DNA of 64,000 nt from NCBI GenBank assembly GCA_017994695.1, contig JAGOKF010000010.1:230-64229 (forward strand), given 5' to 3'. This stretch comes from Myxococcota bacterium. GTDB taxonomy: Bacteria; Myxococcota_A; UBA9042; DTJE01. A program made the translations under genes and the position numbers. How positions within the stretch are numbered: the first letter of the stretch is position 1; each line of letters begins with the position of its first letter. Positions 4,915 through 56,542 of this stretch are shown here, one piece after another. A model generated the notes under the pieces. That model did no database searches, was not told where the DNA came from, and saw nothing but the letters and a program-made list of their open reading frames with translations.

Positions 4915-4942
4915 CGGGAACTGCTCCCCCCTTCTCCGGGGT

Positions 4943-9530: not shown

Positions 9531-9944
9531 CTAGAAGCGGCCGCCCCGGTCCCGGTCGTGGCCCCGATCCCGGCCCCGGCCGCCCCGGTCCTCGAAGCCC
9601 GTGTCGTAGCCGCCACCGGCGTTGTATCCCCGGTCGCCGCCACGGCTTCCGCCGGAATACCCGCCGCCGTAGCCGCCGCCCCGGGGTCCCCGATCCTCGC
9701 GGGGACGGGGCTCATCGACCTTGATGGCCCGGCCGTCGAGCATCGAACCGTCCAGTTCGGCCTTGGCCCGGCTCGCCGCCTCTTCCGTCGCGAACGTGAC
9801 GAACCCGAATCCCTTGGATCGCCCGGTCGCGCGATCCATCACGACCGTCGCCTCGATCACCTCCCCGAACCGCTCGCACGCGGCCCGCAGAGAAGCGTCC
9901 GTCGTCGCCCACGCCAGACCACCGAAAAACAGCTTCGTCCCCAT
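9531..9944 (-). CDS. RRM-type RNA-binding protein with Gly/Arg-rich tail
   Basis: RNP-2 LFFGGL and RNP-1 KGFGFVTF motifs. C-terminal RGG/GGY repeats. RBS GGGAGGAG before ATG 9942-9944. Confidence 0.85.
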   Translation of the reverse strand: MGTKLFFGGLAWATTDASLRAACERFGEVIEATVVMDRATGRSKGFGFVTFATEEAASRAKAELDGSMLDGRAIKVDEPRPREDRGPRGGGYGGGYSGGSRGGDRGYNAGGGYDTGFEDRGGRGRDRGHDRDRGGRF

Positions 9945-14000: not shown

Positions 14001-14566
14001 CCACGGTACCGGAAGCCCGCGGCCAGGACCGCCGAGGCCCGGTCCCCCCGGACCACCCGGACATCCACCGTCCCGGCCTCCCCCGGGGGAGCCGTCACGT
14101 TGGCGGTCCGATCCGACAGCACGAAGAGGTCGCGCCCCGCCCGGGCCCCGAAGAAGACCTCCATCCCCTCCCGGAAGCCCCCGCCCCGCAAGGTCACGGT
14201 GGTCGCGGCATCCGAAGGCCCCTCGGAGGGATCCACGGAAAACAGCACCAGCGGCACGGCCGGCCCATCCTCTCCGGAGAGGTTTTCGTCCCCGGCGGCA
14301 TCCCGGTCCTCCGCCCCCGGATCCTCCGGGACGGCGGCGGAATCGGCGGCATCCCTGCCGACCGCCTCCTGGTCGTCCTGCGGCGCCGTCTCCCCGGACA
14401 GGTCCGGCCGGGACGCTCCCGGGTCGGTCCATGCGTCCCTGGCGTCGGTCTCGGATGGGGCCAGGTCGCGGGCGCCAGGGACCTCCAGGCCGCAGCCCGC
14501 CAGGACGACCATCCCGGCCAGCGCCCCCATCCAGGCCCGCCTGTCGATTCCCGCCGCCACGTGCAT
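11036..14566 (-). CDS. Large surface lipoprotein with four IPT/TIG domains and C-terminal beta-propeller-like region
   Basis: Lipobox MGALAGMVVLAGC. Four repeats of the V..V.P..GP..GGT.V.IRG.GF (TIG) pattern. ~1170 aa. Start ATG 14566 or 14530. Confidence 0.7.
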   Translation of the reverse strand: MHVAAGIDRRAWMGALAGMVVLAGCGLEVPGARDLAPSETDARDAWTDPGASRPDLSGETAPQDDQEAVGRDAADSAAVPEDPGAEDRDAAGDENLSGEDGPAVPLVLFSVDPSEGPSDAATTVTLRGGGFREGMEVFFGARAGRDLFVLSDRTANVTAPPGEAGTVDVRVVRGDRASAVLAAGFRYRGRLDVTGVEPDRGPAEGGTPVVIRGTGLSEPVEVLFGGRRVPEQQSVDDRTLLVVTPPGDPGPAVVTVVRGQDKVRRVDAFRYEEKEAWPGHPSFRVEAIEPDHGSWEGGTEVLVRGAGFRPGAAVRIGALPARSVEVLGEDRIRAVTGPGSPGPADVAVRQGYAAAVLPDGYRYDWPGGPALWDVDPDTGSWAGGARVRIHGANLEGAARVYFGNAEASGLRLVHSGLLEVRAPRAAETGSVPLMVIGKGGGALGPASFLYFDPRLAGGGVWGGPIRGDLNVTVLNGATGARLPGALAILGADGPGAGITDDRGQVTLSFPDLRGPQVLTVAKAGFSAATYAGFDGRNATLYVSPVGSPESGDPPPSTGGDGTDCLVEGRIRDYGKYLVKPSWLTTTPFVRCEASGTSQYAGGPDPGPRAVPDARGFFTVIGRSGTFALWCRLLAPDPVAGGVLTIRDGLVRRLSCGPSGRVEGVVVTLDRETDGEFVLATGALPEAPFGSNPPYVIASYELGEDGWLPMLNVQQRQGDRIRFPWQPRHFQGDYGGLGYAFYVTTSAAAAPGTSSNGMPYSVALARRVDPFAPPSPGAGGVALAEDSGGGLAAVTAPLAEITAMAPLSDGRAVATDASGGTWEFDGTAFQGGPLRVDRPLYGVHAASDGDIWFVGAGGTVRRLRADGVRDLPVPLAVDLVAVAGESGDRVSVGGGASLWSWDGAAWVGEPLPAAVRGIRAIRRFPGGEILGVGDGGIVFRGVSGRGFEVDQPVTDTLRGLDCLDRDMCMAAGDRGVLLRVGPEDVTILRAPGNPDLAGIVVVGPDRAWMFGAGGRVLTWDGHSFWEVFAPRSDVDLRAGVTAGGRVLLAGRRFHRLPGFLGYPWIVDPAAGAFWDGRRLAWEPLAAPAGGGPSYLQALVSSSSGWTAWSVIADGGIREVGLPDLEAWIGEPVLPGGSLRVNLTAVRSPGFRMGAFGSQDLAWDRRESFSVNLAGFLR

Positions 14567-14833
14567 CGCCACGATTCGTGCCACCCGTAGCATACCAGTT
14601 GCCGCCGCCTGCCGCGTTCCCGACCCGGCGGCGCACCGCCCCACGTTGCAGTTTCCCTTCCTCCCCGGGCTCCCTCAGGCGTCCCCGCCGGGGTCCCCGG
14701 GGCTTCCATCCCGGCCACCCTCCCGAGGACTGCGGGAAAAATCCCTTGCATTCCCGGAACGGAACCCTTACCCTATGGGCGGTTCTAGGGCAGGGCCTTG
14801 GACCATTTTTCAGTCTCAGTGGGAGGTTGCGCG

Positions 14834-19954: not shown

Positions 19955-21187
19955 ATGCATACTGAACGCGACCCCGTTCCGGGATCGACCGTGGCCGACG
20001 CCCTGGAAGCCAAGCGCATCGACCTGCACGACTCGTCGTCCCGGCGTCGGGTTTCCGGATCCGGCCGGAGGAACTCCCTCCGCTGGCTGGACGAGGAGGA
20101 GTTCCGCCAGCAGGTGCGGAAGGAACGGGAACGTTCCGACCGGACGGGACGTCCCTTCTCGGTCCTCTTCGTGACCCTTCAGGAACCGCGGGATCGCCGG
20201 CGGATGGTCCGACTGGCCTCGGATCACCTCCGGCTGCTGGACGACATCGGTCAGGTCGGCGACCTGCGGCTGGGCATCCTGCTGCCCGAGACCCCCATCG
20301 ACGGGGCCCGGACGCTGGAACAGCGGCTGCTGGAAGGGGCCCGGCAGGCCTCGATTCCCTGCGCGATCAAGTCCTATGCCTACGGCGGACTCTGCGAGAC
20401 CCCCGATCTCTGCGGGCAGGTGTCCTGCTCGGGCAACTGCGTCGGCCGGGGCGTCCCCCGGGGGACCCCCCTGCTGTCCGATGGCGATGGCGCACCGGAC
20501 CCGGGGAATCCGGCACCCGCGAAGGAATCCGGTCCGGACGGAAGACTCGCAGACACCCCGTCGAGCATCTTCCGGCTGCTGGCGCCCCCCATCCCGTGGT
20601 GGAAGCGGGTGCTGGACGTCCTGGGGGCCTCGGTGCTGCTGGTGGCCCTTTCCCCCGTCCTCGCCCTGGCGGCGGTCGCGGTGCGGTTCTCCTCCCCCGG
20701 GCCGATCATCTTCCGCCAGCAGCGGGTCGGACTGGGAGGCCGGGTCTTCTGGTTCTACAAGTTCCGGTCCATGTACGTCGATGCGGAACAGCGGAAGAAG
20801 GACCTGGAGCACCTGAACGAGGCCCAGGGACCGGTGTTCAAGATCGCCCGGGACCCCCGGATCACCCCGGTCGGCCGCTTCCTCCGCGTCACCAGCATCG
20901 ACGAACTGCCCCAGTTGTGGAACGTCCTCCGGGGGGACATGTCCCTGGTCGGCCCGCGGCCGCCCATCCCCGAGGAGGTACGGCAGTACGCCCCCTGGCA
21001 CCGGAGGCGCCTGGAGGTCCCCGGGGGTCTGACCTGCATCTGGCAGGTCAGCGGGCGATGCGACATCCCCTTCGAGGACTGGATGCGGATGGACCTCCGG
21101 TACTCCCGCCAGCAGTCCCTCGCCACGGACCTGGCCCTGCTCTGGAAGACGGTCGGGGCCGTCCTTTCCCGCCGGGGCGCAAGGTAG
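19955..21187 (+). CDS. Polyprenyl-phosphate sugar transferase (Bac_transf/WbaP-like C-domain) fused to N-terminal degenerate GGDEF-like domain
   Basis: C-terminal TM + sugar transferase motifs (PIIFRQQRVG, KFRSM, SLVGPRPP). N-terminal 170 aa resemble a diguanylate-cyclase fold with GGDEF replaced by GDLRLG. Confidence 0.75.
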   Translation: MHTERDPVPGSTVADALEAKRIDLHDSSSRRRVSGSGRRNSLRWLDEEEFRQQVRKERERSDRTGRPFSVLFVTLQEPRDRRRMVRLASDHLRLLDDIGQVGDLRLGILLPETPIDGARTLEQRLLEGARQASIPCAIKSYAYGGLCETPDLCGQVSCSGNCVGRGVPRGTPLLSDGDGAPDPGNPAPAKESGPDGRLADTPSSIFRLLAPPIPWWKRVLDVLGASVLLVALSPVLALAAVAVRFSSPGPIIFRQQRVGLGGRVFWFYKFRSMYVDAEQRKKDLEHLNEAQGPVFKIARDPRITPVGRFLRVTSIDELPQLWNVLRGDMSLVGPRPPIPEEVRQYAPWHRRRLEVPGGLTCIWQVSGRCDIPFEDWMRMDLRYSRQQSLATDLALLWKTVGAVLSRRGAR

Positions 21188-21192
21188 GGTCC

Positions 21193-22653
21193 ATGCGCCT
21201 GCTGCTGGTCAACACCAACACCTGCCGGGACCCGTACCCGGTGGCGCCCCTGGGCGTGTGCCTGCTGGCATCGGCCCTCCGGGACGAGGCGGAGGTGCGG
21301 GTCTTCGACGGGACCTTCCGGGGCAGCGAGGGCCTGCGGGAGACGGTTGAGGACTTCCGCCCGGATCTCGTCGGGCTGTCGGTGCGCAACGTGGACGACC
21401 TGGTGCCCCGGGAGACGACCTTCTTCCTGGACGAGATCCGCCGGGCCTTCGTGAACCCCTTGCGAGAGGCCACCGGGGCTCCCCTGGTCCTCGGTGGCAG
21501 CGCCTTCAGCCTCTTCCCGCTGGAACTGATGCGGGCCTGGCAGGCGGACTACGGAATCGTCGGCGAGGGGGAGGAGGCCCTGCGGACCCTGGTCCGCACG
21601 CTGGAACATGGGGGGGATCCCCGGCGCATCCCCGGACTGCTGGTCGCCGGGGACCGGGAAGTCCCGGCGGCGCCGCGAAGGCCGGCACCGGGTCCCCTGC
21701 GAATCCCCTTCTCCGAGGTGGACCGGCACATCGACTTCGGCCCCTACCGGCACCTGGGTTCGTACCCCATCCAGGCCCGGCGGGGATGCACCCATCGGTG
21801 CATCTACTGCACCTACCCGGCCCTGGAGGGACGCCGTCACCGCCTGCGGGATCCCGAGGAGATCGCCCGGGAGATCGCCGAGGCCGCGGACCGGATTCCC
21901 GGGGTCACCTTCGAGTTCGTGGACAGCACCTTCAACGATCCCAGAGGCCACGCTGAGGCCATCTGCCGGGCCCTGATCCGCCGGGACCTCCGGGTGCGGC
22001 TCCGGACGATGGGAGTCAATCCCGGACACGTGACCGACGAACTGCTGGACCTGATGCAGCAGGCCGGCTTCGCCCAGATCGACTGCACCCCCGACTCGGC
22101 CTCGCCGACGATGATCCGGGCGATGGGCAAGAACTTCTCCCCGGAAGACCTCGTGCGAACGGCCCGGGGAATCCGGCGCAGGGGGATGCCCACCGCGTGG
22201 TTCTTCCTGTTCGGGGGACCGGGAGAGACGGCCGGGACCATCCGGGAGACGATGGATTTCATCGACCGGGAGGTGTCCCCCGAGGACCTGGTGCTGATGG
22301 GCATCGGCCTGCGGATCTACCCCGGGACCCCTCTGCACCGGACCGCGATCCGGGAGGGGATCGTGTCCCCGGAGGAGGACCTGGTCCGTCCCCGGTTCTA
22401 CGTGGCGCCGGACCTGGGCTACGAGCGCATCCGGGACACCCTCGAGGAGGCCGCCGCCGTCCGCCCCCACTGCCTGCCCCCCGGCGAGAACCGCCCGTCG
22501 CCGGAGATGCTGCGGCAGGCCGTCGCGATGCGCCGGGACCAGGGGCTCACGGAGCCGATGTTCCGCACGCTGCTGCGGATCCGCCGGTCGTGGCCCCGCT
22601 TCGCCGGGATCGCCGCCCCCGGGAATGCTCCGGTGCCGTCCGTCACGAAATGA
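21193..22653 (+). CDS. Class B radical SAM enzyme (N-terminal B12-binding domain + radical SAM core)
   Basis: Starts 5 nt after the sugar transferase stop (MRLLLVNTN...). CxxxCxxC = CTHRCIYC. The long N-terminal extension in ORF 20596..22653 is an out-of-frame overlap artefact. Confidence 0.8.
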   Translation: MRLLLVNTNTCRDPYPVAPLGVCLLASALRDEAEVRVFDGTFRGSEGLRETVEDFRPDLVGLSVRNVDDLVPRETTFFLDEIRRAFVNPLREATGAPLVLGGSAFSLFPLELMRAWQADYGIVGEGEEALRTLVRTLEHGGDPRRIPGLLVAGDREVPAAPRRPAPGPLRIPFSEVDRHIDFGPYRHLGSYPIQARRGCTHRCIYCTYPALEGRRHRLRDPEEIAREIAEAADRIPGVTFEFVDSTFNDPRGHAEAICRALIRRDLRVRLRTMGVNPGHVTDELLDLMQQAGFAQIDCTPDSASPTMIRAMGKNFSPEDLVRTARGIRRRGMPTAWFFLFGGPGETAGTIRETMDFIDREVSPEDLVLMGIGLRIYPGTPLHRTAIREGIVSPEEDLVRPRFYVAPDLGYERIRDTLEEAAAVRPHCLPPGENRPSPEMLRQAVAMRRDQGLTEPMFRTLLRIRRSWPRFAGIAAPGNAPVPSVTK

Positions 22654-23989
22654 CGTGGGTCCCCGCCCGGATGCCCCAGAGGCTTCCCGCTTCCCGGTAG
22701 AACCGGTCCAGGGGCAGGCGGGTCCGCAGCACGCAGTTGAAGAAGTTGTAGCGGGCCAGGTCGAAGTCCACGATGCGGTCCCGCATCCGGCGATGCAGCG
22801 CCGTGCCGGGCATCGGGGTCAGCACGGTGTACCCGGCGTAGGCGGTCTGGTGGGCCGAGGCGAACTCGGCCAGGGCGTGGAATTCGGGGAGGTCCCAGTC
22901 GGGGTCCACCACGTAGTTCGCCCGGAGCAGGATGCCGTGGTCGGCGAAGACCCGGAGCCCCTCGGCGATGTGGTCCGGGGTCAGGGATTTCCGATAGCGC
23001 CGCAGGTCCTCGGGGCGGGGGGACTCGACGCCGGTGATCACCACCCGGAGCCCCGCCCGGGCCAGGCGCCCGATCAGGTCCGGATGGCGGGCCGCCGTGT
23101 CCAGCCGGATGTCCATCACCAGGGTCTTGCGGATGCCCTCGGCCTCCAGGCGGTCCAGCAAGGCGTGGGTCCAGGGGATGTCCACCACCGTGTTCGCGTC
23201 GGCGAACCGCACCACCTCGTACTCGTCCAGCAGCCGCATCTCGGACACGATGCTGTCGATGGACCGGAGGAAGTAGCCTCCCCGGCGCTGGGGCCAGATG
23301 CTACAGAAGGAGCAGCGGGAGGTGCAGCCGAGGGAGGTGTACAGGTAGGTCACGGGCCTCGGGTCCCCCCCGACGGTGTAACTGTCCATCCAGGGTCGCA
23401 GGTAGGACCGGTCGGGCACCAGGAAATCCCGGCCGGCGGGCTCCAGGGGCGGAGGGGGAGCGGGCATGGGCTGCAGGCGACCCGACCTCCGGAACCGGAC
23501 CCCGGGAAGGTCCGCGGTCCGTCCCCGTTCCCGGAGGGATCGCAGCATGTCCCGAAAGACCAGCGCCCCGTCACCGGGGATCAGGACGTCCACGTCCGGG
23601 TGGTCGTAGTCCCCGGGGCAGAGGGTGGGATGGATGCCTCCGGCGACGGTCAGGATGTCCGGGTCCACGAAGCGGGCCGCCCGGAAGATCTCCATGCCCG
23701 CGGGGTGTTCCGAGGCGATGAAGGTCACCCCCACGACGTCGGCCGGGTGGTCCCGGAGGTAGGCGACCATCCAGTCGAAGACCGGGGGCGATTCGGGGCG
23801 CAGGTCGTACTCGCCCTTGAGGTCCAGGAATGCCACGTCCGCCTCCTCCCGGGCGGCCACCGCCACGGTCAGAAGTCCCAGGGGCGGACCCACCAGCCTC
23901 GTGTGAACGAATCGCCGGACCTCCTCGGGGGCATGGTCCCGCAGGGCGTTGCAGGGCGAACGGGGCGGGTTGACTAGGAGCACCTTCAT
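22643..23989 (-). CDS. Class B radical SAM enzyme (B12-binding + radical SAM), second copy
   Basis: Real start ATG 23987-23989 (MKVLLVNPPRSP...). CxxxCxxC = CTSRCSFC. The N-terminal 193 aa of ORF 22643..24568 are junk. ATGA overlap with upstream crotonase. Confidence 0.8.
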   Translation of the reverse strand: MKVLLVNPPRSPCNALRDHAPEEVRRFVHTRLVGPPLGLLTVAVAAREEADVAFLDLKGEYDLRPESPPVFDWMVAYLRDHPADVVGVTFIASEHPAGMEIFRAARFVDPDILTVAGGIHPTLCPGDYDHPDVDVLIPGDGALVFRDMLRSLRERGRTADLPGVRFRRSGRLQPMPAPPPPLEPAGRDFLVPDRSYLRPWMDSYTVGGDPRPVTYLYTSLGCTSRCSFCSIWPQRRGGYFLRSIDSIVSEMRLLDEYEVVRFADANTVVDIPWTHALLDRLEAEGIRKTLVMDIRLDTAARHPDLIGRLARAGLRVVITGVESPRPEDLRRYRKSLTPDHIAEGLRVFADHGILLRANYVVDPDWDLPEFHALAEFASAHQTAYAGYTVLTPMPGTALHRRMRDRIVDFDLARYNFFNCVLRTRLPLDRFYREAGSLWGIRAGTHVIS

Positions 23990-24594
23990 CGCGCCTCTTC
24001 CACCGACGGTCGGATGCGAAGCCTGCGGGCGGCCATCTCGGCCATGCCCGGCCCCTGGGCCCTCTCCACGACGCCGTGGATCAGGCCCAGGCGGGCCGCC
24101 TCCTCGGCGTCCACCAGGCGTCCCGACAGCACCAGGTCCAGGGCCTGGGAGATCCCGATCCGGCGGGTCGCCCGCCAGGTTCCCCCGCAGCCGGGCATCA
24201 CCCCGAAGGAGGACTCGGGAAAGCCCAGCACCGCGCCGGGAGCCGCCAGGATCAGGTGTGCGCACAGCGCCAGTTCCAGGCCGCTGCCCAGGCAGGCGCC
24301 CTCGACCCACGCGATCACCGGAATCGAGAGGTCCGAGATGGCCGTGAAGAGGGCCTGGTGGCGGGAGATGGCCTCCCGGTCCCGCCACAGCGGCTGCATC
24401 GCCGCCCGGTCGGCCCCGGCGGAGAAGTGCCGTCCCTTTCCCCGGATCACCAGTCCCCTCACCTCGCGTCTCCGGACCTCCGCCAGGGCGCCTTCCAGGC
24501 TTTCGAAGAACTCCGGGTCCATCAGGTTTCCGGGAGGCGCGTCGAGCCACCAGTGCCCGATCTCCCATTCCCCCACTTCCAGCAAGACCTTCAC
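23986..24594 (-). CDS. Enoyl-CoA hydratase/isomerase (crotonase) family protein, short form
   Basis: Crotonase fold (GKGRHFSAGAD..., oxyanion-hole region). GTG 24592-24594 preceded by GGAGGGGG. GTGA overlap with upstream stop. Confidence 0.7.
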   Translation of the reverse strand: MKVLLEVGEWEIGHWWLDAPPGNLMDPEFFESLEGALAEVRRREVRGLVIRGKGRHFSAGADRAAMQPLWRDREAISRHQALFTAISDLSIPVIAWVEGACLGSGLELALCAHLILAAPGAVLGFPESSFGVMPGCGGTWRATRRIGISQALDLVLSGRLVDAEEAARLGLIHGVVERAQGPGMAEMAARRLRIRPSVEEAR

Positions 24595-24938
24595 CGCGCC
24601 CCCTCCGGCCCGACCGCCAGCCCGCAGGCGGTGTCCCGGGAATGGCTGATCGCCACCCGGACCCCGGCCAGCACGCCCGGGCCTCCGGGGACCTCGTCCA
24701 GCAGCCTGGGGGCCCCGTTCGGACCCCGTCCGATCCGGAAGTCCCTGGGAGTTCCAGGCAGTTCCCGGTACTGCCACAGCCGGGCCAGGGCCTCCTTCAG
24801 GGCCATCCGGCCAGCCCAGGTCCGCAGCGGAGCCCCTGCCAGTTCCGCCGCCTCCCCGTCGTCGAAATACCGGGATCGCTCCCGGACCAGGCGTTCCTCG
24901 GCCTCGGGAATCGGCAGGGAGCAGAGGACCGCCCTCAC
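24591..24938 (-). CDS. AcpS-family 4'-phosphopantetheinyl transferase paralogue, divergent (Mg-site Asp replaced)
   Basis: C-terminus of ORF 24591..26696(-). AcpS motif 2 RMALKEALARLW and motif 3 VRVAISHSRDTACGLAV. N-terminal GxD motif reads AVLCSL. GTG start overlaps crotonase stop (GTGA). Confidence 0.5.
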   Translation of the reverse strand: MRAVLCSLPIPEAEERLVRERSRYFDDGEAAELAGAPLRTWAGRMALKEALARLWQYRELPGTPRDFRIGRGPNGAPRLLDEVPGGPGVLAGVRVAISHSRDTACGLAVGPEGAR

Positions 24939-25654
24939 GACGCCACCTCCCGGGCCAGTTCCAGGAAGAGTTCCGTTTCCCGGCGAAGGGCCTCCTCCCG
25001 GGGGCGGCGCCAGGCATTCCCCACGGACTCCAGGATCGCCCGGACCTGGAGCGGCGTCCGATCGCCGATCCAGCGGTGGATGAGCGCCCGGCATTCCTCC
25101 TCGAGTCGTCCGGCCGGGGCCACCCGGTCCACCAGGCCCCACTCCAGGGCCTCCTCGGCCCCGATCAGCCGCCCGGTCAGGATCCACTCCAGTCTTCGGC
25201 TTCGGGCGATCCGGTTCCCCGTCTCCAGGGTACCCCCGAGGCCCGGCATCAGGCCCAGTTCCGATTCGGGAAATCCCATCATCGCCCCCGAGGCCGCCAC
25301 CCGGGCATGGCAGGCCAGGGCGATCTCCATCCCCGCCCCGAGGCACTGGCCGGAGATGGCGGCGACGACGGGCACCGGGGCATCCCGGATGCGGTCCAGC
25401 AGCACCTTCCCAGCATCCAGGGACCGGGCCAGGGACTCGGGGTCCGGCAGCCGTTTCCGCAGGGCCTGGAGGTCCGCTCCACCGCAGAAGTGCCTCCCGA
25501 ATCCGGTCAGCACGACGGCCCGGATCCCCTCCTGGCCGAAAAACCTCTCCAGGATTCCGGGATCCACGAACACGGGGTCGTCCAGCGTGTTCCGGGGCGG
25601 GCGATCCAGCACGATCCGGCCCAGGTCCCCGTCCCGTTCCAGCCGCACCTCCAT
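24935..25654 (-). CDS. Enoyl-CoA hydratase/isomerase (crotonase) family protein
   Basis: Crotonase motifs (GFGRHFCGGADL, AAISGQCLGAGMEIALACH). RBS GGAAGGGGAGG before ATG 25654. Confidence 0.8.
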   Translation of the reverse strand: MEVRLERDGDLGRIVLDRPPRNTLDDPVFVDPGILERFFGQEGIRAVVLTGFGRHFCGGADLQALRKRLPDPESLARSLDAGKVLLDRIRDAPVPVVAAISGQCLGAGMEIALACHARVAASGAMMGFPESELGLMPGLGGTLETGNRIARSRRLEWILTGRLIGAEEALEWGLVDRVAPAGRLEEECRALIHRWIGDRTPLQVRAILESVGNAWRRPREEALRRETELFLELAREVAS

Positions 25655-25675
25655 GCCCGCCTCCCCTTCCGCCGT

Positions 25676-26764
25676 TCAACCCGGCCCGCCTGTCCCTTCC
25701 ATGCCGGAAACCACGGGAGGGCGCCACCAGGGCAGGCCCGTCTGCCGGAATCGCATCCCGCAGCGATCCCGCCATTCCCGCTCCCGTGGTCCCGGGGGTG
25801 GCCACGGGGCCTGGAACAGGCCCGCCAGGGCGATCCTCAGGTCGTCCTCGCTCAGAAGGCCCGATCGCACCGCCTCCCGGCAGGTCCGGAAGAACAGGGC
25901 CTCGGCGTCCCGGGTCAGTTCCTCCATCGATCCGGCTGCCACGACGGGCGGTGCCGATTCCTTCGAAACTGCCGGCGCCTCGGCCGGCCCCCAGCATCCC
26001 CGGCGGATCCGGTCCCCGATGGCCGATTCCAGCGCCTCGTAGGACCGGGCCTCCTCGGCCCCCATCCGCAGGCGGTAGAAGGCCACCGATCGGGCGATGG
26101 TCTTCATGCCCACCGACTCCATCAGGGTCAGGGGCCGCAGGCCGGGCCAGGCCTGTCCGAAGGCCCGGTCCACCTGTTCCTGGTCCAGGCCCCGCCCGAC
26201 CAGGTGGACGGCCCAGGCCTGGGAGGGGAGCATGAGGCGGTTGACCGCCTGGGCCTGGCGGGCCCCGATCTGTACGACGGAGGACAATCCCAGCCGGGCC
26301 GCCAGCGTTACCAGGCGCTGCCGGACCGGTTCCCCGCCACCTTCCGGAAGGATCACCTCGCAGAATCCCGACAGGATCGACGGGTAGAACAGGTGCAGGC
26401 CCAGGACCTCGGGACGGATCTCCCAGGGGAGCAGCGACGAGGAGTTGGTCAGCACCAGGCCGTCGGGTGCCCGGAAGGGAAGCCACCATTGCAGCACCTC
26501 CCGCTTCGACTGCAGGTCCTCCTCGACGGTCTCGAACAGCACGTCGAAGGGGGCCTCGGGCTTGGTGCCGACCAGGAGGCCCCCGACCTTCCCGACCATG
26601 GAGCCGGCGTCCCCCAGACGCCGCGCCTCCCGATCGAGGTGCTTCAGGCACGCGGCCAGGCGATCCCGGTCCCGGGAGGCGACGGTCACGTCCCACCCGG
26701 CGCCGAGGATCGTCCGGGCGGCGTCCCTCCCCATCCGCCCGGTGCCGATGACGAGGATCCTCAC
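25676..26764 (-). CDS. 3-hydroxyacyl-CoA dehydrogenase family (NAD-binding + C-terminal domain)
   Basis: Rossmann VRILVIGTGRMG, LTNSSSL, GLHLFYP (HFFNP-like). GTG start 26762-26764 with GGAGGG RBS. GTGA overlap with upstream stop. Confidence 0.75.
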   Translation of the reverse strand: MRILVIGTGRMGRDAARTILGAGWDVTVASRDRDRLAACLKHLDREARRLGDAGSMVGKVGGLLVGTKPEAPFDVLFETVEEDLQSKREVLQWWLPFRAPDGLVLTNSSSLLPWEIRPEVLGLHLFYPSILSGFCEVILPEGGGEPVRQRLVTLAARLGLSSVVQIGARQAQAVNRLMLPSQAWAVHLVGRGLDQEQVDRAFGQAWPGLRPLTLMESVGMKTIARSVAFYRLRMGAEEARSYEALESAIGDRIRRGCWGPAEAPAVSKESAPPVVAAGSMEELTRDAEALFFRTCREAVRSGLLSEDDLRIALAGLFQAPWPPPGPREREWRDRCGMRFRQTGLPWWRPPVVSGMEGTGGPG

Positions 26765-27666
26765 GGGAGATCCCTCCAGTGGCGGGCGCCCCACCAGGGC
26801 CGGGAATCGGGGAGCATCCGGGCCAGGGCCACCAGGGAGGTGCCGATGCCGCACTCCACGAACCCGGACGCCCCCGACGCCGCCTCCACCGCCAGGGGCC
26901 ACCGGACCGGCGAGCAGAGATTCGCCCGGATCATCGCCAGGGCCTCCGCTGCCGTCCGGGCCACCGATCCGTCCACCGCGGAGCAGACCGGGACGTCCGG
27001 GTCCCGCCAGGGTTCCCGGACCGCGATCCCGGCGAGCCGGTCGGCCGCCCGGGAAAGCCGTCCCGGATGGTGGTAGGCGACCCGGTCCGTCCACTGGACC
27101 GCCTTCAGGGCCCCGGCCTCCATCGCCCGTGCCTGGAGCACCTCCAGGGTCTCGGGGGTCCCGGCGACCACCAGGGACCAGGGGCCGTTGACCAGCACCA
27201 CCTGCGCCCGATCCATCCCCGGCAGCGACAGGACCTCCTGCTCCCCCAGTCCCACGATGCCCAGCATCCCGAGGGGGTCCGACTCGTAGGCCTCCCGGAC
27301 CAGGCGCCAGGCCTCCCGGACCAGCATCAGGCCCGACGCGACCGGCAGGGCACCCGCCGCCACCACGGCCGCGTACGCTCCGAGGCTGTGGCCCAGCGTC
27401 CCGGCCACCGTCACCCCGGCCTGGCGCACCGCCTCCGCCACGGCGATCCCGAAGGCCTGCAGGAAGACCTGCCGGGCCCCTTCCTCGAGCCCGGAGGCGT
27501 CCTCGACGGCTACCCGCGCCAGGTCTGTCCCGACGACCTGGGAGGCCTCCTCCATCACCCGGTCGAAGACCGACCGGTGGGCCTCCCGGAAGGCCTCCTC
27601 GGGTCCCGCGGGCTGCACGAAGGCCCCGGGAAAGGCCAGGGCGACGGGACCTCGAATCCTCTCCAT
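26761..27666 (-). CDS. Malonyl-CoA:ACP transacylase-like acyltransferase (FabD family)
   Basis: Active-site GHSLGAY, 301 aa, ATG 27664-27666. Confidence 0.75.
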   Translation of the reverse strand: MERIRGPVALAFPGAFVQPAGPEEAFREAHRSVFDRVMEEASQVVGTDLARVAVEDASGLEEGARQVFLQAFGIAVAEAVRQAGVTVAGTLGHSLGAYAAVVAAGALPVASGLMLVREAWRLVREAYESDPLGMLGIVGLGEQEVLSLPGMDRAQVVLVNGPWSLVVAGTPETLEVLQARAMEAGALKAVQWTDRVAYHHPGRLSRAADRLAGIAVREPWRDPDVPVCSAVDGSVARTAAEALAMIRANLCSPVRWPLAVEAASGASGFVECGIGTSLVALARMLPDSRPWWGARHWRDLP

Positions 27667-27668
27667 CC

Positions 27669-28790
27669 CTAGCCGTCCCCACGGCGCAGGAGCCAGCCGG
27701 CCTGCATGAACTGGCTGACCTCCGTGACGAAGGAGGCCAGGCGACGTCCCGGGGCCAGTCCGGTCTCCCGCAGGAACGCGTCCATCGCCAAAAACGTCAT
27801 CGGCGGCCCGGCGTATCCCATCCGGGCCATCCGCTGGTCGATGCGATCCCTCGGGAACCCGATTCCCTCCAGTTCGGCGGCCACCGACTCGACGATGTGC
27901 CGGGCCGGCAGGTTCACCTGGAGGTGGTCCACCTCCAGGGGATCGATGCCCGCCCGGGCCAGCATCCGCAGGTATCCCTTCAGAAAGACGCTTCCCCCGG
28001 GCTCCTGGAACACCCCTGTCGCCAGCTCGTTCCGGAAGGTCTGTCGCAGGTGATGGGAGGCGGTGCGGAACTCCTCGACCGGGTTCATCCAGTAGGCCGG
28101 CCGGAGGTTGAACATCAGCGACGGTCGGTTCCCGCCCACCGATTCCACGTAGGAGCACTCCACCTCGATCACCGGGCCCCGGGCAGGAGGATCCACGCCC
28201 AGCACCGCCGCTCCCGCCCCGTCCGACAGGAACCACCGGAGGAACAGCGACTCCTTGTCCACCTTCTCCTGGTTGAAGTACTCGGCCCGGAGTTCCGACG
28301 ACGAGATCCCCGCCGACACCGCCAGGGCCCGGTCGTAGTGGCCGTCGGCCAGCAGGTGGTGGGCCAGGTAGAGGGCCTTGTAGGCCGACGTGCAGTTGGC
28401 ATGGATCGAGAACTCGGCGCAGGAGTCGATGCCCAGGGCCTTCTGGATGCGCACCGAGGCCGTGGGCATCTGGTCCTGGTGCGCGGACCCGTAGCAGAGG
28501 AGGTCCACGTCCGCAGGGACCATCCCCGCCGCCTCCAGGGCCTGCCGGGCCGCCTTCTCGGCCATCGAGACGTTGTCCTCGGTGAACTGCCTCGTCCGGG
28601 GATCCAGGGCGTAGTGGACCACCTCGATGTCCAGCAACTGGCGCATCACCGGGCCCATCTCCTCCATCCAACGGCGGATCCGCGGTGGCGCGTCCACGAG
28701 GGGTCCCAGGACCTCCTGGGCCCGTTCCACGGGGATCGGTTCCCCCGGGAGATGGCGACCGGTCCCGAGCAGGAAGACCTTCCGGCTCAT
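27669..28790 (-). CDS. KAS III-like (FabH/thiolase-fold) condensing enzyme
   Basis: FabH-like fold, Cys in HANCTSAYKA, 373 aa. RBS GGGAGGG. ATGA overlap with upstream KAS stop. Confidence 0.7.
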   Translation of the reverse strand: MSRKVFLLGTGRHLPGEPIPVERAQEVLGPLVDAPPRIRRWMEEMGPVMRQLLDIEVVHYALDPRTRQFTEDNVSMAEKAARQALEAAGMVPADVDLLCYGSAHQDQMPTASVRIQKALGIDSCAEFSIHANCTSAYKALYLAHHLLADGHYDRALAVSAGISSSELRAEYFNQEKVDKESLFLRWFLSDGAGAAVLGVDPPARGPVIEVECSYVESVGGNRPSLMFNLRPAYWMNPVEEFRTASHHLRQTFRNELATGVFQEPGGSVFLKGYLRMLARAGIDPLEVDHLQVNLPARHIVESVAAELEGIGFPRDRIDQRMARMGYAGPPMTFLAMDAFLRETGLAPGRRLASFVTEVSQFMQAGWLLRRGDG

Positions 28791-30010
28791 CCCTCGCCCT
28801 CCCACCGACGGAAGATCACCACCCCGTTCTGGCCGCCGAAGGCGAAGGAATTGCTGACGACGGTGCGGAGGGAGGCGCGCCGGGGGCCGTCCGCCACATA
28901 GTCCAGGTCGCACTCGGGGTCCGGGCAGGCCAGGTTCAGCGTGGGCGGGATCACCCCCTCGACCAGGGCCTTCACCGCCAGCACCGCCTCGACGCCGGCA
29001 GCCCCCGACAGGCAGTGTCCCGTGGCGCCCTTGGTCGAGGAGACCGGCATCCTCCGGGCATGGGATCCGAAGACGCGGTGGATGGCCTGGGTCTCGTAGA
29101 GGTCGTTCAGGGGGGTCGATGTCCCGTGGGCGTTCACGTAGTCCACGTCCTCCGGCGCCAGGCCCGCGCTGGCCAGTGCCCGCTCCATCGTCCGGGCCAT
29201 GCCGACGCCGCCGGGTTCCGGCGACAGGATGTTGTAGGCCTCGCTGGAGAGTCCCGGGCGGTGCATCACCGCCAGGATGCGCGCCCCCCGGCGCCGGGCG
29301 TGGTCCAGGCTCTCCAGGACCAGGAAGCCGGCCCCCTCCCCCATCACGAACCCCTTTCGCCGGGCGTCGAAGGGCCGGGACAGGCCCTCGACGTCGTCGT
29401 CGGGTTCCGCCAGGGCCATCAGGGCCGTGAATCCCCGGATGTCCAGGGGGTTCAGCGCCGACTCGGCCGCCCCGGCCACCACCGCGTCGCAATCCCCCCG
29501 GACGATCCACTCCCAGGCCGACGCCAGGGCATAGGCCCCGCTGCTGCAGGCGGTGCTGACCACCATCGAGGGCCCGGTCCAGCGTCCCCGCAGGGAGATC
29601 CAGGCCGCCGATGCCGAGGTCATGTTCCGGAGGATTCGGTTTGGATCCTCCTCGCCGTCCATGGGGGCATAGCCGGTGCCGGTCGCTCCGACCACGACCC
29701 CCACCCGGGAAGGATCCACCGCCGGCGCCGCCAGGCCCGCGTCGGCCACCGCCGCCTCGGCGCAGCAGGTCGCCGCCTGGGTGGCCCGGGTCATCTGGCT
29801 CCGGGTCCGGGGCTTGAAGCGCCCTCGGAAGACCTCCTCCGCCCCGTCAGGAAACTGCACCCCCACGGGGACCTCCAGGCCGGCGGGGTCGAAGTTCGTG
29901 TACCGCCGGATCACCCGGCGCCGATCCAGGATGCCCCGCCACGTCTCGTCCACGTCCAGGCCCAGGCCGGTCATGCAACCCAGGCCGGTGACCGCCACGA
30001 CCGGTTCCAT
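28787..30010 (-). CDS. Beta-ketoacyl-ACP synthase I/II-like (FabF/FabB family)
   Basis: Cys site VVSTACSSG. His sites HGTSTPLND and KGATGHCLSGAAG. ATG 30008-30010 with GGCGAGGAG RBS. Confidence 0.8.
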   Translation of the reverse strand: MEPVVAVTGLGCMTGLGLDVDETWRGILDRRRVIRRYTNFDPAGLEVPVGVQFPDGAEEVFRGRFKPRTRSQMTRATQAATCCAEAAVADAGLAAPAVDPSRVGVVVGATGTGYAPMDGEEDPNRILRNMTSASAAWISLRGRWTGPSMVVSTACSSGAYALASAWEWIVRGDCDAVVAGAAESALNPLDIRGFTALMALAEPDDDVEGLSRPFDARRKGFVMGEGAGFLVLESLDHARRRGARILAVMHRPGLSSEAYNILSPEPGGVGMARTMERALASAGLAPEDVDYVNAHGTSTPLNDLYETQAIHRVFGSHARRMPVSSTKGATGHCLSGAAGVEAVLAVKALVEGVIPPTLNLACPDPECDLDYVADGPRRASLRTVVSNSFAFGGQNGVVIFRRWEGEG

Positions 30011-30011
30011 C

Positions 30012-30425
30012 TCACTCCTCGCCGGGGTCGTTCCCCGGTTCGACACCCCGCAGGAATTCCCCGGGCACCGGGGCCGGACCCCCGGCCACCGCGTCCCGGA
30101 AGGCGATGACGGTCCGGGCCCGGGCGATCGTCTCCCCGTCCCGAAGAACCCGGTAGCCCAGGGTCAGTCGGAAGTCGTCCTCCTCCCGCAGGCGGACCTC
30201 CACCTCGAGACGGTCCATCAGGCGGGCCGGCCGAAGGAACCGCATCGAGAGATCCGCCATCACCGGGACGCAGCCATCCGGGTGCACCGGCAGCCCCCGG
30301 TCCACCAGGAAGCGCAGGCGGGCCCGCTCCAGGAAGGCGACCAGGCGGGCGTGGTGGGCGATGCCGTAGGAGTCCACGTCCTCGAACTCCACCGTCACCG
30401 GCACCCGCAGAGACGCTTCCTTCAT
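30012..30425 (-). CDS. Hotdog-fold acyl-CoA/acyl-ACP thioesterase (4HBT/YbgC-like)
   Basis: 137-aa 4HBT-like sequence (VTVEFEDVDSYGIAHHARLVAFLERAR). ATGA overlap with AcpS stop. Confidence 0.7.
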   Translation of the reverse strand: MKEASLRVPVTVEFEDVDSYGIAHHARLVAFLERARLRFLVDRGLPVHPDGCVPVMADLSMRFLRPARLMDRLEVEVRLREEDDFRLTLGYRVLRDGETIARARTVIAFRDAVAGGPAPVPGEFLRGVEPGNDPGEE

Positions 30426-30835
30426 CCCGTCTCCCCCTCTCCCAGGGCGGCCCCGTCATGGACCAGCACCGCCGCCCGGATCTCCTCGGGGTCCCGCCAG
30501 ATGCGGACCTCCAGGACCGTCCCCCGGAGTCGGACGGCCAGGTCCCCGTGCAGGAGGACTTCCGCCCGGTCCGCTTCCGGATCGGCGATCACCTCGCACT
30601 CCCGCAGGTCGTAGGGCTCCTCGAGGGCCTTCCAAAGGGCCTCCTTGACGCAGAAGCCCGCGCACAGCCGTTCGGCGTCCCGCCCGTCCCCGCGGGAAGC
30701 CCGAAGGCGCTCCCCGGGGCCGAACACCCCTTCCAACGGTTCCCTGCGGAATCGCTCGATCCGCTCTGCGTCCACCCCTGCCCCCCGCAGGGGCCCCGGG
30801 CCGTCAGAGGTCCACGTGCAGAATGTCGTCCCCAT
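30422..30835 (-). CDS. acpS: Holo-ACP synthase (AcpS-type phosphopantetheinyl transferase)
   Basis: AcpS motifs GAGVDAERIERF (GxD), FCVKEALWKAL. ATG at 30835 would overlap the ACP gene by 32 nt. The true start may be the in-frame CTG ~30 nt downstream. Confidence 0.65.
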   Translation of the reverse strand: MGTTFCTWTSDGPGPLRGAGVDAERIERFRREPLEGVFGPGERLRASRGDGRDAERLCAGFCVKEALWKALEEPYDLRECEVIADPEADRAEVLLHGDLAVRLRGTVLEVRIWRDPEEIRAAVLVHDGAALGEGETG

Positions 30836-31112
30836 GACGCACGATCGCCACCGAGAGGTCCACCACCTGCCCGATGGTCTGGGCGGGCTTCTTCATCAGG
30901 TGCCGGGCCAGGGTCTTCAGTTCGATCCCGATCCCCCAGCGCTTCCGGACCTTCTCCAGCAGCGAGAGGAACATCAGCGAGTCCCCCTCCAGCTCCTCGA
31001 TGATCCGGGTCCCGGGGTGAAGCCGGGATCGATCGATGTCGCACTCGGCAGCGAAGAAGTCGTACACCAGGTCGGTGATCTCCTGCACGGTCGCCGGGTC
31101 GAGTTCCTTCAT
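30804..31112 (-). CDS. Acyl carrier protein
   Basis: Phosphopantetheine-attachment motif LEGDSLMFLSLL. RBS GGGAGGAA 5 nt before ATG 31110-31112. First gene of the operon. Confidence 0.8.
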   Translation of the reverse strand: MKELDPATVQEITDLVYDFFAAECDIDRSRLHPGTRIIEELEGDSLMFLSLLEKVRKRWGIGIELKTLARHLMKKPAQTIGQVVDLSVAIVRHGDDILHVDL

Positions 31113-31284
31113 CCGGTTTCCTCCCGCCTCTGGTGGGTCCGTTCCATCCCGGCCGGGAAATCCTCCCGCATTCTCCCCGCGCCCGGCGGAAAGTCAAGGG
31201 AAGGCCCCGTTTCCGCCATCCCCCGGCCCGCGCCCCTGCGGCGAAATGCACCGGGAGTCCCGCGCTTCTGCTATCCTCCGCCGG
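31113..31284. promoter_or_regulatory. Divergent promoter region between ACP operon and Cys-rich hypothetical gene
   Basis: 172-bp non-coding gap upstream of both first genes. No confident sigma-70 hexamers found by eye. Confidence 0.3.
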
Positions 31285-31878
31285 ATGGGCGATGCCTCGA
31301 CCCGGTACCCCGGCGATCGGATCCTCTGCGAGGGGAAGTTCCTCCGCTACGTGGTGGCCTGCATGCGGAACTGCCCCTACCCGGATCACTGCCGGGAGTT
31401 CTGGGCCTACTTTCGCGCCCAGGGGATGCAGCCCAGAGAGTGGCTCCGTCTTCACGGACTACCGGAGGACCTCATGAAACGCATCGTCTTCGACTGTGAC
31501 CGCTGCGGGAAGAAGGACATCGGCGCCCCCTTCAGCCTCTTCCGGACCTCCGGGGAGGCCGAGGGAAGCCGGATGTCCCCGGAGGAGTTCCAGCCGGTCT
31601 TCGAGGCCCTGGGCCCCCAGGGCTGCTCCCAGGCCTTCCTGGAATCCGTGCTGGCGGCCCTGAAGGACCAGTGCGGCTACGAGCACTACTGCGAGGGGTG
31701 CTTCCGGAAGATCGGCAGTCTGGCGACGGCCCTGGTGAACCGTCCCGCCCCCAAGGCGCCGGCCAGGATGTCCCGGCAGCCGGCGGTGGTGGAAGCCCTG
31801 TCGGCCTCCCGGACACGGAAGGAACCCCCTCCCCGAACCGAGGAACCCCGGCCCGCGGGACGGAAGCGCCCGACCTGA
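31285..31878 (+). CDS. Cys-rich hypothetical protein (two CxxC pairs; possible zinc-ribbon)
   Basis: Protein-like composition from MGDASTRYPGDRILCEGKF. CDRCGKK and CEGCFRK motifs. Strong internal RBS GGAGGA before ATG 31474, so a shorter 135-aa product is possible. Confidence 0.4.
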   Translation: MGDASTRYPGDRILCEGKFLRYVVACMRNCPYPDHCREFWAYFRAQGMQPREWLRLHGLPEDLMKRIVFDCDRCGKKDIGAPFSLFRTSGEAEGSRMSPEEFQPVFEALGPQGCSQAFLESVLAALKDQCGYEHYCEGCFRKIGSLATALVNRPAPKAPARMSRQPAVVEALSASRTRKEPPPRTEEPRPAGRKRPT

Positions 31879-32055
31879 CGAGGGGGCAGCCCGGAACGCG
31901 GGATTGCCGGATCGCGAGGGAGGTCCGTCCCCGATCGCCCCTGACGGACCCTCCTGGCGGCCCGTTCCCGGGCCGTCCCCCAGGATCGCCGACCGGTTTG
32001 CATCGCGAGACCCCGGCGGAGTACCCTTGACGGGAATCTCGCGGAGGAACGCCCG

Positions 32056-32499
32056 ATGCCCAGGACCCTCTTCTGGCTGCTCGCCTGTTGCGGACTGTCC
32101 GCCCCTGCGATCGCACAGGTCCCCTCCCCGGCGGGACGGTGGATCACCGTGGATGACAAGACGGGACGCGAGAAGTCCGTCGTCGTGATCACCGAGCAGG
32201 ACGGGGAGATCCGGGGCCGCATCGAGCGCCTGTACCGGGAGCCGGGGGAGGACCCGGACCCCCGTTGCGACAAGTGCCCGGGCCCGAAGAAGGACCAGCC
32301 GGTGATCGGCCTGGAGATCCTCTGGGGTCTCCGTTGGAACGGCGAGGAGTGGGCTGGGGGGCAGATCCTGGACCCGGAGAACGGCAAGACCTACAAGTGC
32401 TGGATCCAGGTCATCGACGAGGGCCGTCGGCTGAAGGTCCGGGGCTTCATCGGGTTCAGCCTGCTGGGGCGCACCCAGTACTGGAAGAAGGCCCCCTAG
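32056..32499 (+). CDS. DUF2147 family periplasmic protein
   Basis: RBS GGAGGA, signal peptide MPRTLFWLLACCGLSAPAIAQ, characteristic WITVDDKTGREKSVVVI...GEIRGRI. Confidence 0.7.
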   Translation: MPRTLFWLLACCGLSAPAIAQVPSPAGRWITVDDKTGREKSVVVITEQDGEIRGRIERLYREPGEDPDPRCDKCPGPKKDQPVIGLEILWGLRWNGEEWAGGQILDPENGKTYKCWIQVIDEGRRLKVRGFIGFSLLGRTQYWKKAP

Positions 32500-56043: not shown

Positions 56044-56045
56044 GG

Positions 56046-56528: not shown

Positions 56529-56542
56529 CGGTCCTGCCTCCC

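Follow-up and report, generated by a model that had tools for sequence, protein, structure and literature searches.

The window analysed here, 64,000 nucleotides of contig JAGOKF010000010.1 from a Myxococcota bacterium (positions 230 to 64,229), contains between positions 19955 and 31112 a locus of 13 genes: 11 consecutive genes on the minus strand, from 31112 down to 22643, and two convergent genes on the plus strand. In order, the 11 genes encode an acyl carrier protein (ACP), an AcpS-type phosphopantetheinyl transferase, a hotdog thioesterase (TE), a FabF-like ketosynthase (KS), a KASIII-fold condensing enzyme (KS3), a FabD/MdcH-like acyltransferase (AT), a 3-hydroxyacyl-CoA dehydrogenase (HADH), two crotonases (ECHa and ECHb) with an AcpS-like protein between them, and a B12-binding radical S-adenosylmethionine (SAM) enzyme (rSAM-B); the convergent pair encodes a sugar transferase and a second B12-binding radical-SAM enzyme (rSAM-A). 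The locus is a real, conserved and uncharacterised feature, and a preliminary description of it, made from the letters of the window, was largely right, with corrections due to its reading of one condensing enzyme, to the role it gave the sugar transferase and to the supposed uniqueness of the locus. We consider it very likely that these genes specify an acyl-ACP pathway that is dedicated, conserved and distinct from housekeeping metabolism, with B12 radical-SAM enzymes for tailoring. The encoded proteins predict that the cassette builds, on a carrier protein of its own, a lipid- or polyketide-like compound that is then tailored.

The window has a G+C content of about 71% throughout, and genes were therefore called using third-position GC frame analysis and start-codon context. 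An independent gene call on five metagenome contigs, which encode an identical rSAM-A protein and share 98-100% identity with the window proteins, gave the same 13 models, with a shorter AcpS as the sole difference, and the coordinates and domains first described for the eleven co-directional and two convergent genes were borne out by Pfam and NCBIfam. Identical contigs occur in ERZ27257506, SRR32942125 and SRR21285877. The 13 genes are tightly packed. While the preliminary description had 4-nucleotide (nt) ATGA/GTGA overlaps at nearly every junction, such overlaps in fact occur at 6 of the 10 junctions in the operon, a mild overstatement, the other four being a 32-nt overlap (ACP/AcpS) and spacers of 1 nt (TE/KS), 2 nt (KS3/AT) and 21 nt (HADH/ECHa). 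The rSAM-A and rSAM-B genes overlap tail-to-tail by 11 nt. Inside the operon there is no terminator-like site, and the proposal of a single coupled operon is upheld. Upstream of the ACP gene lies a sigma-70-like promoter candidate (31170..31197, minus strand; TTGACT-16-GAGAAT, 9/12), the only promoter-like match between 18500 and 32600, where about 0.6 would be expected by chance, which makes it weak evidence. No Rfam family, including the cobalamin riboswitch, matched between 15000 and 36000.

The locus is not a chance assemblage, because its gene set recurs in synteny across many phyla, whose bacteria are mostly uncultured, and it is not the one-off "orphan" that it had first been taken for. 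A KS3 scan of species-representative genomes returned 190 relatives, the best 80 of which come from Myxococcota, Rokuibacteriota, Fibrobacterota, Calditrichaceae, Hydrogenedentota, Desulfocapsaceae, Thermodesulfobacteriota, Kiritimatiellia, Spirochaetales, Leptospirales, Syntrophothermus and many Bacteroidales. Our search patterns were matched by only 221 stretches among 185,579 species genomes, a lower bound that is limited by those patterns. The closest named record is "Deltaproteobacteria bacterium JPNA_maxbin.075" (94% KS3 identity), and a search for cultured, named carriers through the names of cluster members yielded only metagenome-assembled genome (MAG) or metagenome records with generic names. 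Synteny, assessed by tblastn, is conserved over at least 10 higher taxa. Outside the Bacteroidales the order is ACP-AcpS-(TE)-KS-KS3-AT-HADH-ECHa-(AcpS-like)-ECHb-rSAM-B, often with a convergent rSAM-A, and in the Bacteroidales it is TE-ECHa-(AcpS-like)-ECHb-KS3-(third B12 radical SAM)-HADH-KS-ACP-AT, followed by rSAM-A and rSAM-B. Full flanks, meaning at least 8 kb to either side of the KS3 gene, were available for 39 loci; among these, ECHa and KS were each present in 38, HADH in 37, ECHb in 35, ACP in 27, AT in 26, rSAM-B in 25, rSAM-A in 19, another B12 radical SAM in 16 and the sugar transferase in one. The genes are thus still linked in relatives, and no terminators interrupt the operon, so that the outcome named at first as refuting the proposal did not occur. 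By these comparisons, the locus is a member of a widespread conserved cassette that is neither housekeeping nor functionally annotated.

KS3 (27669-28790, minus strand), a non-canonical enzyme that profile and predicted fold place as StlD/DarB-related, is the most conserved protein of the set: its identity across phyla is 51-72%, where AT and HADH reach 21-43%. Its family, 51-94% identical across phyla, is tight and isolated, since an E-value of 1e-30 or lower is reached by 32 of 1.84e9 cluster representatives (50% identity). The earlier label for this protein, FabH-like KASIII, is misleading. KS3 scores 63.8 bits on the FabH model TIGR00747 (cutoff 292.1), and its best NCBIfam match is the StlD/DarB family NF005293 (95.7 bits, cutoff 450), with 60.8 bits on the DarB model NF053539 (cutoff 550). 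When a profile of 35 KS3 sequences was searched against the PDB, StlD was matched over its full length (E 2.7e-29) and FabHs at about 1e-18 over the N-terminal half only. The AlphaFold2 model of KS3 (predicted local distance difference test score 90.1, predicted template-modelling score 0.91) told the same story in Foldseek, with StlD first (template-modelling score, TM, 0.84-0.85; E 2.6e-29), AbyA1 second (TM about 0.75) and FabHs at about 0.72; ChlB3 was also among the structural matches. AbyA1 is in addition the best single-sequence PDB match (E 1.6e-13), at an identity of about 20%.

The active-site residues set this family apart. The nucleophile is kept, Cys133 being invariant among orthologues; His302 of StlD aligns to an invariant Asn293 and the Asn of GNTGSAS to an invariant Tyr326, and neither His244 nor Asn274 of FabH is conserved. 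When distant relatives are included in the alignment, LPH(Y)SS and GNTGSAS are retained by true StlD/DarB-like proteins, whereas NLPxxH and GY.GPP stand in their place in the KS3 family and in the relatives nearer to it. Having Asn293 and Tyr326 where His and Asn would stand speaks against decarboxylative initiation of the FabH type; KS3 therefore keeps the acyl-Cys nucleophile and has lost the residues for malonyl decarboxylation. Canonical FabH-type initiation was rejected on the FabH hidden Markov model (HMM) score together with the lost His-Asn pair. KS3 is thus closest to StlD, a ring-forming DarB-type ketosynthase, yet it is not a member of the DarB/StlD family. The earlier statement that the locus is "not Dar" holds in the latter sense, but as an outright dismissal it was too quick, given that StlD is the closest solved relative of KS3.

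The FabF-like KS (28787-30010, minus strand; PF00109 and PF02801), an elongating enzyme, has an intact Cys-His-His triad (motifs TACSSG, HGTST and GHCLSGAG) and scores 387 bits on TIGR03150, under the cutoff of 493.75. The malonyl-type AT (26761-27666, minus strand; PF00698, 53.5 bits) carries a GHSLG motif and reaches 117 bits on MdcH and 103 bits on FabD models, both below cutoff. HADH (25676-26764, minus strand; PF02737, 52.9 bits) is a divergent NAD-type enzyme of 362 residues with a C-terminal extension, a GxGxxG Rossmann motif and a His/Glu pair, and its best PDB match is a 3-hydroxybutyryl-CoA dehydrogenase (E 3.8e-9). Both crotonases keep the two catalytic Glu residues: ECHa (24935-25654, minus strand; 239 residues; PF00378, 141.5 bits) has the motifs GAGMEIA and FPESE, and the shorter ECHb (23986-24594, minus strand; 202 residues from a GTG start at 24594; PF00378, 117.5 bits) matches positions 11-178 of the 251-position ECH_1 model, has genuine hydratases as its best PDB matches, and is consistently about 180-230 residues long among orthologues. 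No enoyl-reductase family was matched by Pfam among the 13 locus proteins, and no FabG, FabZ or FabI lies at the locus, in agreement with the first account of an NAD-type HADH and crotonases as beta-oxidation-type processing enzymes in place of FabG/FabZ/FabI and with no enoyl reductase.

These properties bear on two conventional explanations. The first, a variant of the housekeeping type II fatty acid synthase (FAS II), would draw on the presence of ACP, AcpS, FabD-like, FabF-like and KASIII-fold genes and on the wide distribution of the set; however, the equivalog cutoffs for FabF, FabD and FabH are all missed, FabG, FabZ and FabI are lacking, the 221 matched stretches (at the least) are few among 185,579 species genomes, and different phyla have the genes in different orders and with different accessory sets, so that we regard this as the least probable of the explanations considered. 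The second is a 3-hydroxy-3-methylglutaryl (HMG)-synthase-type beta-branching cassette (ACP, decarboxylating KS, HMG synthase, ECH1, ECH2 and AT), which has superficially the same parts, namely an ACP, a KS, a thiolase-fold enzyme, an AT and two crotonases. It was rejected on the KS, which keeps the Cys of TACSSG and not the Ser of a decarboxylating KS(0). KS3, moreover, scores 27-30 bits on HMG-CoA synthase models with cutoffs of 244-360, both crotonases retain the hydratase Glu, and HADH is present although an HMG-synthase cassette does not need it. Residue and HMM tests thus effectively refute this explanation, which we would call highly improbable.

The dedicated ACP (30804-31112, minus strand; 102 residues; PF00550, 25.3 bits against a cutoff of 20.8) contains LEGDSLMF, with its DSL serine motif, and is 38-81% identical in syntenic loci. 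Its 3' end is overlapped by the gene for the AcpS-type phosphopantetheinyl transferase (30422-30835, minus strand; 137 residues; PF01648, 33.5 bits), for which we favour the longer start because the N-terminal 18 residues are conserved in 14 orthologues; the GxDxE...R and KEA motifs are invariant in these, and the enzyme is active-looking. The hotdog thioesterase (30012-30425, minus strand) is of the YbgC/4HBT_2 type (PF13279, 70.3 bits) and falls below cutoff on the YbgC/FadM models; the same gene precedes ECHa in the Bacteroidales versions. Between the two crotonase genes lies a 115-residue open reading frame (ORF; 24591-24938, minus strand) with no significant Pfam match. In a PDB search its orthologue profile matched AcpS (1f7l, E 1.6e-11), aligning to residues 24-115 of the Bacillus subtilis enzyme, and neither direct pairwise nor profile comparison with the cluster's own AcpS was significant. 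The protein is without the N-terminal Mg-binding Asp (GxD), and the Glu of its KEA motif is not conserved. ORFs of 115-144 residues, likewise with no significant Pfam match, occupy the same place between the ECH genes in Myxococcota and some Bacteroidales versions. The alignments support the earlier call of a degenerate AcpS homologue, with an AcpS-like body and the GxD motif gone.

Tailoring would fall to the two B12 radical-SAM enzymes. Both rSAM-B (22643-23989, minus strand; 448 residues), the last gene of the operon, and rSAM-A (21193-22653, plus strand; 486 residues) match PF02310 and PF04055 above cutoff and carry a CxxxCxxC motif after the B12-binding domain (CTSRCSFC and CTHRCIYC in the two proteins), so that domains and motif alike point to class B (cobalamin-binding) radical-SAM enzymes, as had been proposed. 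The rSAM-B gene is coupled to ECHb by an ATGA overlap and directly follows ECHb in most non-Bacteroidales versions; its product is only remotely similar to its best matches, HpnR (123 bits against a cutoff of 650) and BchE (93 against 481) in NCBIfam and TokK (E 9e-8) in the PDB. A speculative link to modifiers of membrane-spanning lipids finds no support. Neither radical-SAM enzyme matches the hopanoid radical-SAM models of NCBIfam, with HpnR far under its cutoff and HpnP not among the matches listed; no Tes, Mss or Grs model was returned, so that the search was no real test of these three. For rSAM-A, the closest characterised relatives are TsrM, the nearest solved structure (6wte, E 3.3e-36), and BzaD (194.9 bits), with rSAM-A well below both family cutoffs (500 and 450). 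Both of these are B12-dependent C-methyltransferases whose targets are aromatic sp2 carbons. The cutoff of TIGR04072 ("lipid biosynthesis B12-binding/radical SAM protein"), 360 bits, is consistently missed by rSAM-A (324.7 bits) and by its orthologues in four other loci (319.3-334.3 bits), while a different radical-SAM protein inside the Calditrichaceae version is a true member at 384.8 bits. The rSAM-A family is thus a sister group of TIGR04072 rather than part of it.

This sister relationship raises the question of a ladderane-like or otherwise radical-cyclised lipid, related to those of the anammox clusters, as the short name of TIGR04072 is rSAM_ladder_B12 and a true member lies inside the Calditrichaceae version. 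The Desulfocapsaceae version has a phytoene-desaturase-like gene, as does anammox Cluster I, and antiSMASH has called "ladderane" clusters, their function unknown, in Myxococcota, Fibrobacterota and Desulfobacterota (PMC9902471), three groups that carry the cassette. On the other hand, the genes that define the anammox set (amxFabZ, a FabF2/FabF-mut pair and PDH) are missing from the window, and the literature records ladderanes as strictly associated with anammox Planctomycetota. We therefore regard a ladderane-like product as very unlikely.

Other versions of the cassette carry accessory genes. In the Desulfocapsaceae version these encode a phytoene-desaturase-like flavoprotein and a DUF4070 B12 radical-SAM protein. 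Another locus, which like the Desulfocapsaceae version carries an amine-oxidase gene, has genes for an AMP-binding ligase, an MMPL protein, a sulfotransferase and a second ACP with a BtrH_N-like transferase, and one version on a Myxococcota chromosome has a gene for an LPG_synthase_TM protein. On a metagenome contig from an uncultured lineage (ERZ1757541 contig_12061; L087:16349-21128) the operon continues past rSAM-B with genes for an indolepyruvate:ferredoxin-oxidoreductase (IOR)-alpha-like protein (509 bits, cutoff 651), a POR gamma-like protein and two more B12 radical-SAM proteins; these might supply a starter acyl-CoA or reductant. In a low-GC (30%) member of the Bacteroidales the order is TE-ECHa-(AcpS-like)-ECHb-KS3-(unknown protein of 216 residues)-HADH-KS (L063:7828-14194, plus strand), with no ACP, AT or radical SAM within 10 kb, and a COMT-type (phenolic-type) O-methyltransferase with Methyltransf_2 and dimerisation domains is encoded divergently upstream (L063:6602-7702, minus strand). 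On the Bacteroidales chromosome OY820914.1 (L046:19-8427), a flexirubin/aryl polyene (APE)-type set consisting of an ACP, two pairs of KS and chain-length-factor (CLF)-like proteins, a polysaccharide deacetylase, LolA, LolB2 and an ApeI-like dehydratase runs into a TE-ECH-ECH-KS3 module, the junctions around the TE gene being co-directional and overlapping or at most 3 nt long. The flexirubin LolB2 of the Bacteroidales version scores 102.5 bits, above the NCBIfam cutoff of 60, and a cytochrome-c-like Haem_bd protein and a PNPOx-like protein are encoded inside the module. In flexirubin clusters, DarAB would sit at this position. The accessory genes as a whole (O-methyltransferase, desaturase-like, MMPL, LolA, AMP-ligase and IOR-like) would suit an exported lipid that is oxidised or aromatic.

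Taken together, these observations suggest, at a probability that we put at roughly 0.3-0.35, that the StlD-related KS3 may join 3-oxoacyl and 2-enoyl thioesters into a carbocycle, which the B12 radical-SAM enzymes would then tailor. In such a pathway, AT would load malonyl on the ACP and KS would extend an acyl primer to a 3-oxoacyl thioester, part of which HADH and ECHa would convert to a 2-enoyl thioester. KS3, acting through Cys133, would condense the 3-oxoacyl partner head-to-head with the 2-enoyl (or a similar) one to give, by analogy with DarB and StlD, a cyclohexanedione- or resorcinol-type carbocycle. ECHb and the thioesterase would assist in processing and release, and rSAM-B and the TsrM/BzaD-like rSAM-A would C-methylate or otherwise remodel the product without oxygen. 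We are led to ring formation because the cluster encodes exactly the enzymes for both known DarB substrates and because KS3 lies nearest StlD, and then AbyA1, ahead of all FabHs. The flexirubin-type fusion, the TsrM/BzaD affinity of rSAM-A and the O-methyltransferase and desaturase-like accessories are consistent with ring formation, short of proving it. In its fullest form the proposal is that carbocyclic lipids of a new class (cyclohexanedione- or resorcinol-like, or condensed head-to-head in some other way) arise without oxygen and are methylated by the B12 radical-SAM enzymes, in many phyla whose bacteria are mostly uncultured. The route would have a new clade of Cys/Asn/Tyr KASIII-fold enzymes at its centre and, in some Bacteroidales, would stand in for DarAB within flexirubin-type pigment pathways; this we put forward tentatively.

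Several observations weigh against ring formation. The KS3 scores on NF005293 and the DarB model (95.7/450 and 60.8/550) are far below the cutoffs, and NLPxxH and GY.GPP in place of LPH(Y)SS and GNTGSAS may mean that its chemistry is different, such as acyl transfer. In none of the versions examined did we recognise a DarA/StlC-type aromatase. Both crotonases look like ordinary hydratases, and a plain ketoreduction and dehydration cycle fits them equally well. A subset of the Bacteroidales loci consists of TE-ECH-ECH-KS3-HADH-KS without an ACP, AT or radical SAM within 10 kb. Finally, the whole proposal was deduced from sequence.

Almost as likely, and likewise a tentative proposal, is a linear FAS-like assembly line in which KS3 serves as a loading or off-loading acyltransferase, like ChlB3, CerJ and DpsC. 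KS, HADH and the crotonases would elongate, ketoreduce and dehydrate without enoyl reduction, and the B12 radical-SAM enzymes would C-methylate the chain, giving a methyl-branched, unsaturated or hydroxy acyl product to be released by the thioesterase or moved to a membrane lipid. Such a line would give every enzyme a conventional role, in keeping with the Cys-His-His of KS, the GHSLG of AT, and the hydratase Glu and genuine-hydratase PDB matches of the crotonases. ChlB3 is among the structural matches of KS3, and KASIII-like acyltransferases have typically lost the His/Asn pair. C-methylation is the most frequent activity among class-B radical-SAM enzymes, the NCBIfam label of the neighbouring rSAM family is "lipid biosynthesis", and some versions have genes that would supply a starter (the IOR-like oxidoreductase and the AMP-binding ligase). 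However, being the most conserved protein of the set, well ahead of AT and HADH, would be unusual for a simple transferase; the nearest relatives of KS3 by both sequence and fold are ring-forming condensing enzymes and not transferases; and a FabD-type AT is already there for loading.

The remaining gene of the locus encodes a polyprenyl-phosphate glycosylphosphotransferase (19955-21187, plus strand), with a Bac_transf domain at residues 217-404 (PF02397, 216.2 bits, cutoff 27) and a TIGR03025 score of 282.8 bits, just under the cutoff of 295.55. Its N-terminal region of about 210 residues (19955-20584, plus strand) has no Pfam match even at E<=5; it precedes a single hydrophobic helix and the Bac_transf domain, and by eye we noted in it an unconfirmed GGDEF-like pattern (RPFSVLFVTL...GD.RLGILLPET). 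The gene ends 5 nt before rSAM-A, in the same orientation, and its presence beside the locus had led to the suggestion that the product is linked to a polyprenyl-phosphate sugar. The wider form of this idea is that the pathway provides an acyl decoration for a polyprenyl-phosphate-linked glycan such as an exopolysaccharide, O-antigen or capsule, and a BtrH_N-like ACP-dependent acyltransferase and a second ACP do precede rSAM-A in the locus with the amine-oxidase gene. The transferase, however, adjoins rSAM-A only in two close relatives (L006 and L010), about 550 nt away in L010, and is absent from 38 of the 39 loci with full flanks; nor did the genes examined from 16.1 to 35.9 kb include any other for glycan assembly, such as a flippase, a polymerase or a further glycosyltransferase. 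Comparative evidence thus lends no support to the link; the gene is probably a lineage-specific neighbour and not a core part of the cassette, and we regard glycan decoration as unlikely.

On the other side of the operon, divergent from the ACP gene, is a 197-residue ORF (31285-31878, plus strand) that is also called as a gene on the identical contigs; neither Pfam nor NCBIfam has a match for it, and relaxing the threshold to E<=5 brings up no family. The DUF2147 gene that comes next (31945-32499) also adjoins the cluster in the related Myxococcales MAGs L007, L010, L051 and L061. Farther away, the window encodes a large fused Fe-S flavoprotein (54139-56625, minus strand) with thioredoxin-like 2Fe-2S, NuoF 51K FMN and 4Fe-4S ferredoxin domains; we take it to resemble a diaphorase subunit such as bifurcating hydrogenases or formate dehydrogenases have, and this would be a hint that the host lives anaerobically. 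A cyanophycin-synthetase-like ATP-grasp protein (45819-48410, plus strand) lies opposite an ABC exporter (43841-46150, minus strand), and as their stop-to-stop frames overlap by about 330 nt, one of the two starts must lie further in. A PBP1A gene is preceded by genes for three large surface- or envelope-type proteins, a TgpA-like transglutaminase (2701-5022, minus strand), a HEAT-repeat protein (6946-9711, minus strand) and a 1212-residue TIG-domain protein (11036-14674, minus strand), which appear to be unrelated to the biosynthetic locus.

The value of these predictions depends on the product. If it is a distinct class of lipid or pigment, a function would be gained for a gene set that is conserved in at least 10 higher taxa and is labelled only generically in MAGs, at present as "3-oxoacyl-ACP synthase III", "enoyl-CoA hydratase" and "B12-binding radical SAM". 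KS3 would then be a new catalytic variant (Cys/Asn/Tyr) of the KASIII fold, the class-B radical-SAM enzymes would have new, carrier-bound or lipid intermediates as substrates, and the compounds could be candidate environmental biomarkers from anoxic sediments. The cassette might also account for part of the "ladderane" biosynthetic gene cluster calls in non-anammox MAGs, and so explain some of the ladderane-type genome-mining calls made outside anammox bacteria. If the product is an ordinary branched fatty acid, the result would be a modest addition to FAS II diversity.

A literature search found no publication describing this gene set, and papers on "ladderane" clusters give either a different gene set or antiSMASH labels only, in line with the original view that the locus matches no described cluster type. 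The published observations that come nearest are the antiSMASH "ladderane" calls in Myxococcota, Fibrobacterota and Desulfobacterota. StlD, of the DarB family, is the nearest solved relative of KS3, with which it has the nucleophilic Cys in common, and alongside a dedicated ACP the locus encodes enzymes able to supply both of the substrate types of DarB, which are 3-oxoacyl and 2-enoyl thioesters (mechanism in PMC6836626). Unlike this locus, DarABC has no KS, AT, HADH and crotonases of its own and none of the one to four B12 radical-SAM enzymes. A DarA/StlC aromatase, conversely, was found neither among the 13 locus proteins with Pfam nor among the 12 scanned against NCBIfam (all but the 115-residue ORF), and unassigned ORFs in other versions gave no match to one. 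The AbyA1-type tetronate-forming KASIII-like enzymes resemble StlD in joining two carrier-bound substrates into a ring instead of initiating fatty acid synthesis, but the window lacks their glyceryl-ACP (FkbH-type) machinery.

The anammox ladderane clusters also are FAS-like settings with dedicated ACPs, and share the phytoene-desaturase-like gene with the Desulfocapsaceae version. The Cluster I set, however, comprises amxACP, amxFabZ, an amxFabF2/FabF-mut pair, a PDH-like enzyme and a radical SAM, and the lack of a FabZ, a second FabF and a PDH in the window places our locus outside it; KS3, HADH and ECH genes, for their part, are not reported in the anammox clusters as described. With flexirubin and APE systems the locus shares type II FAS/polyketide synthase (PKS) logic, a dedicated ACP and a thioesterase. 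Some Bacteroidales carry the module in one co-directional run with ACP, KS, CLF-like, LolA, LolB2 and ApeI-like dehydratase genes, and MMPL and AMP-ligase genes are neighbours of the cassette in the locus with the amine-oxidase gene, but the window itself has no KS/CLF pair, ApeI/ApeP dehydratase, LolA, LolB or MMPL. B12 radical-SAM enzymes are not known from APE or flexirubin clusters. In the way it works, the locus comes closest to a DarB/StlD-type or a type II FAS/PKS-type system, but its architecture makes it a new variant.

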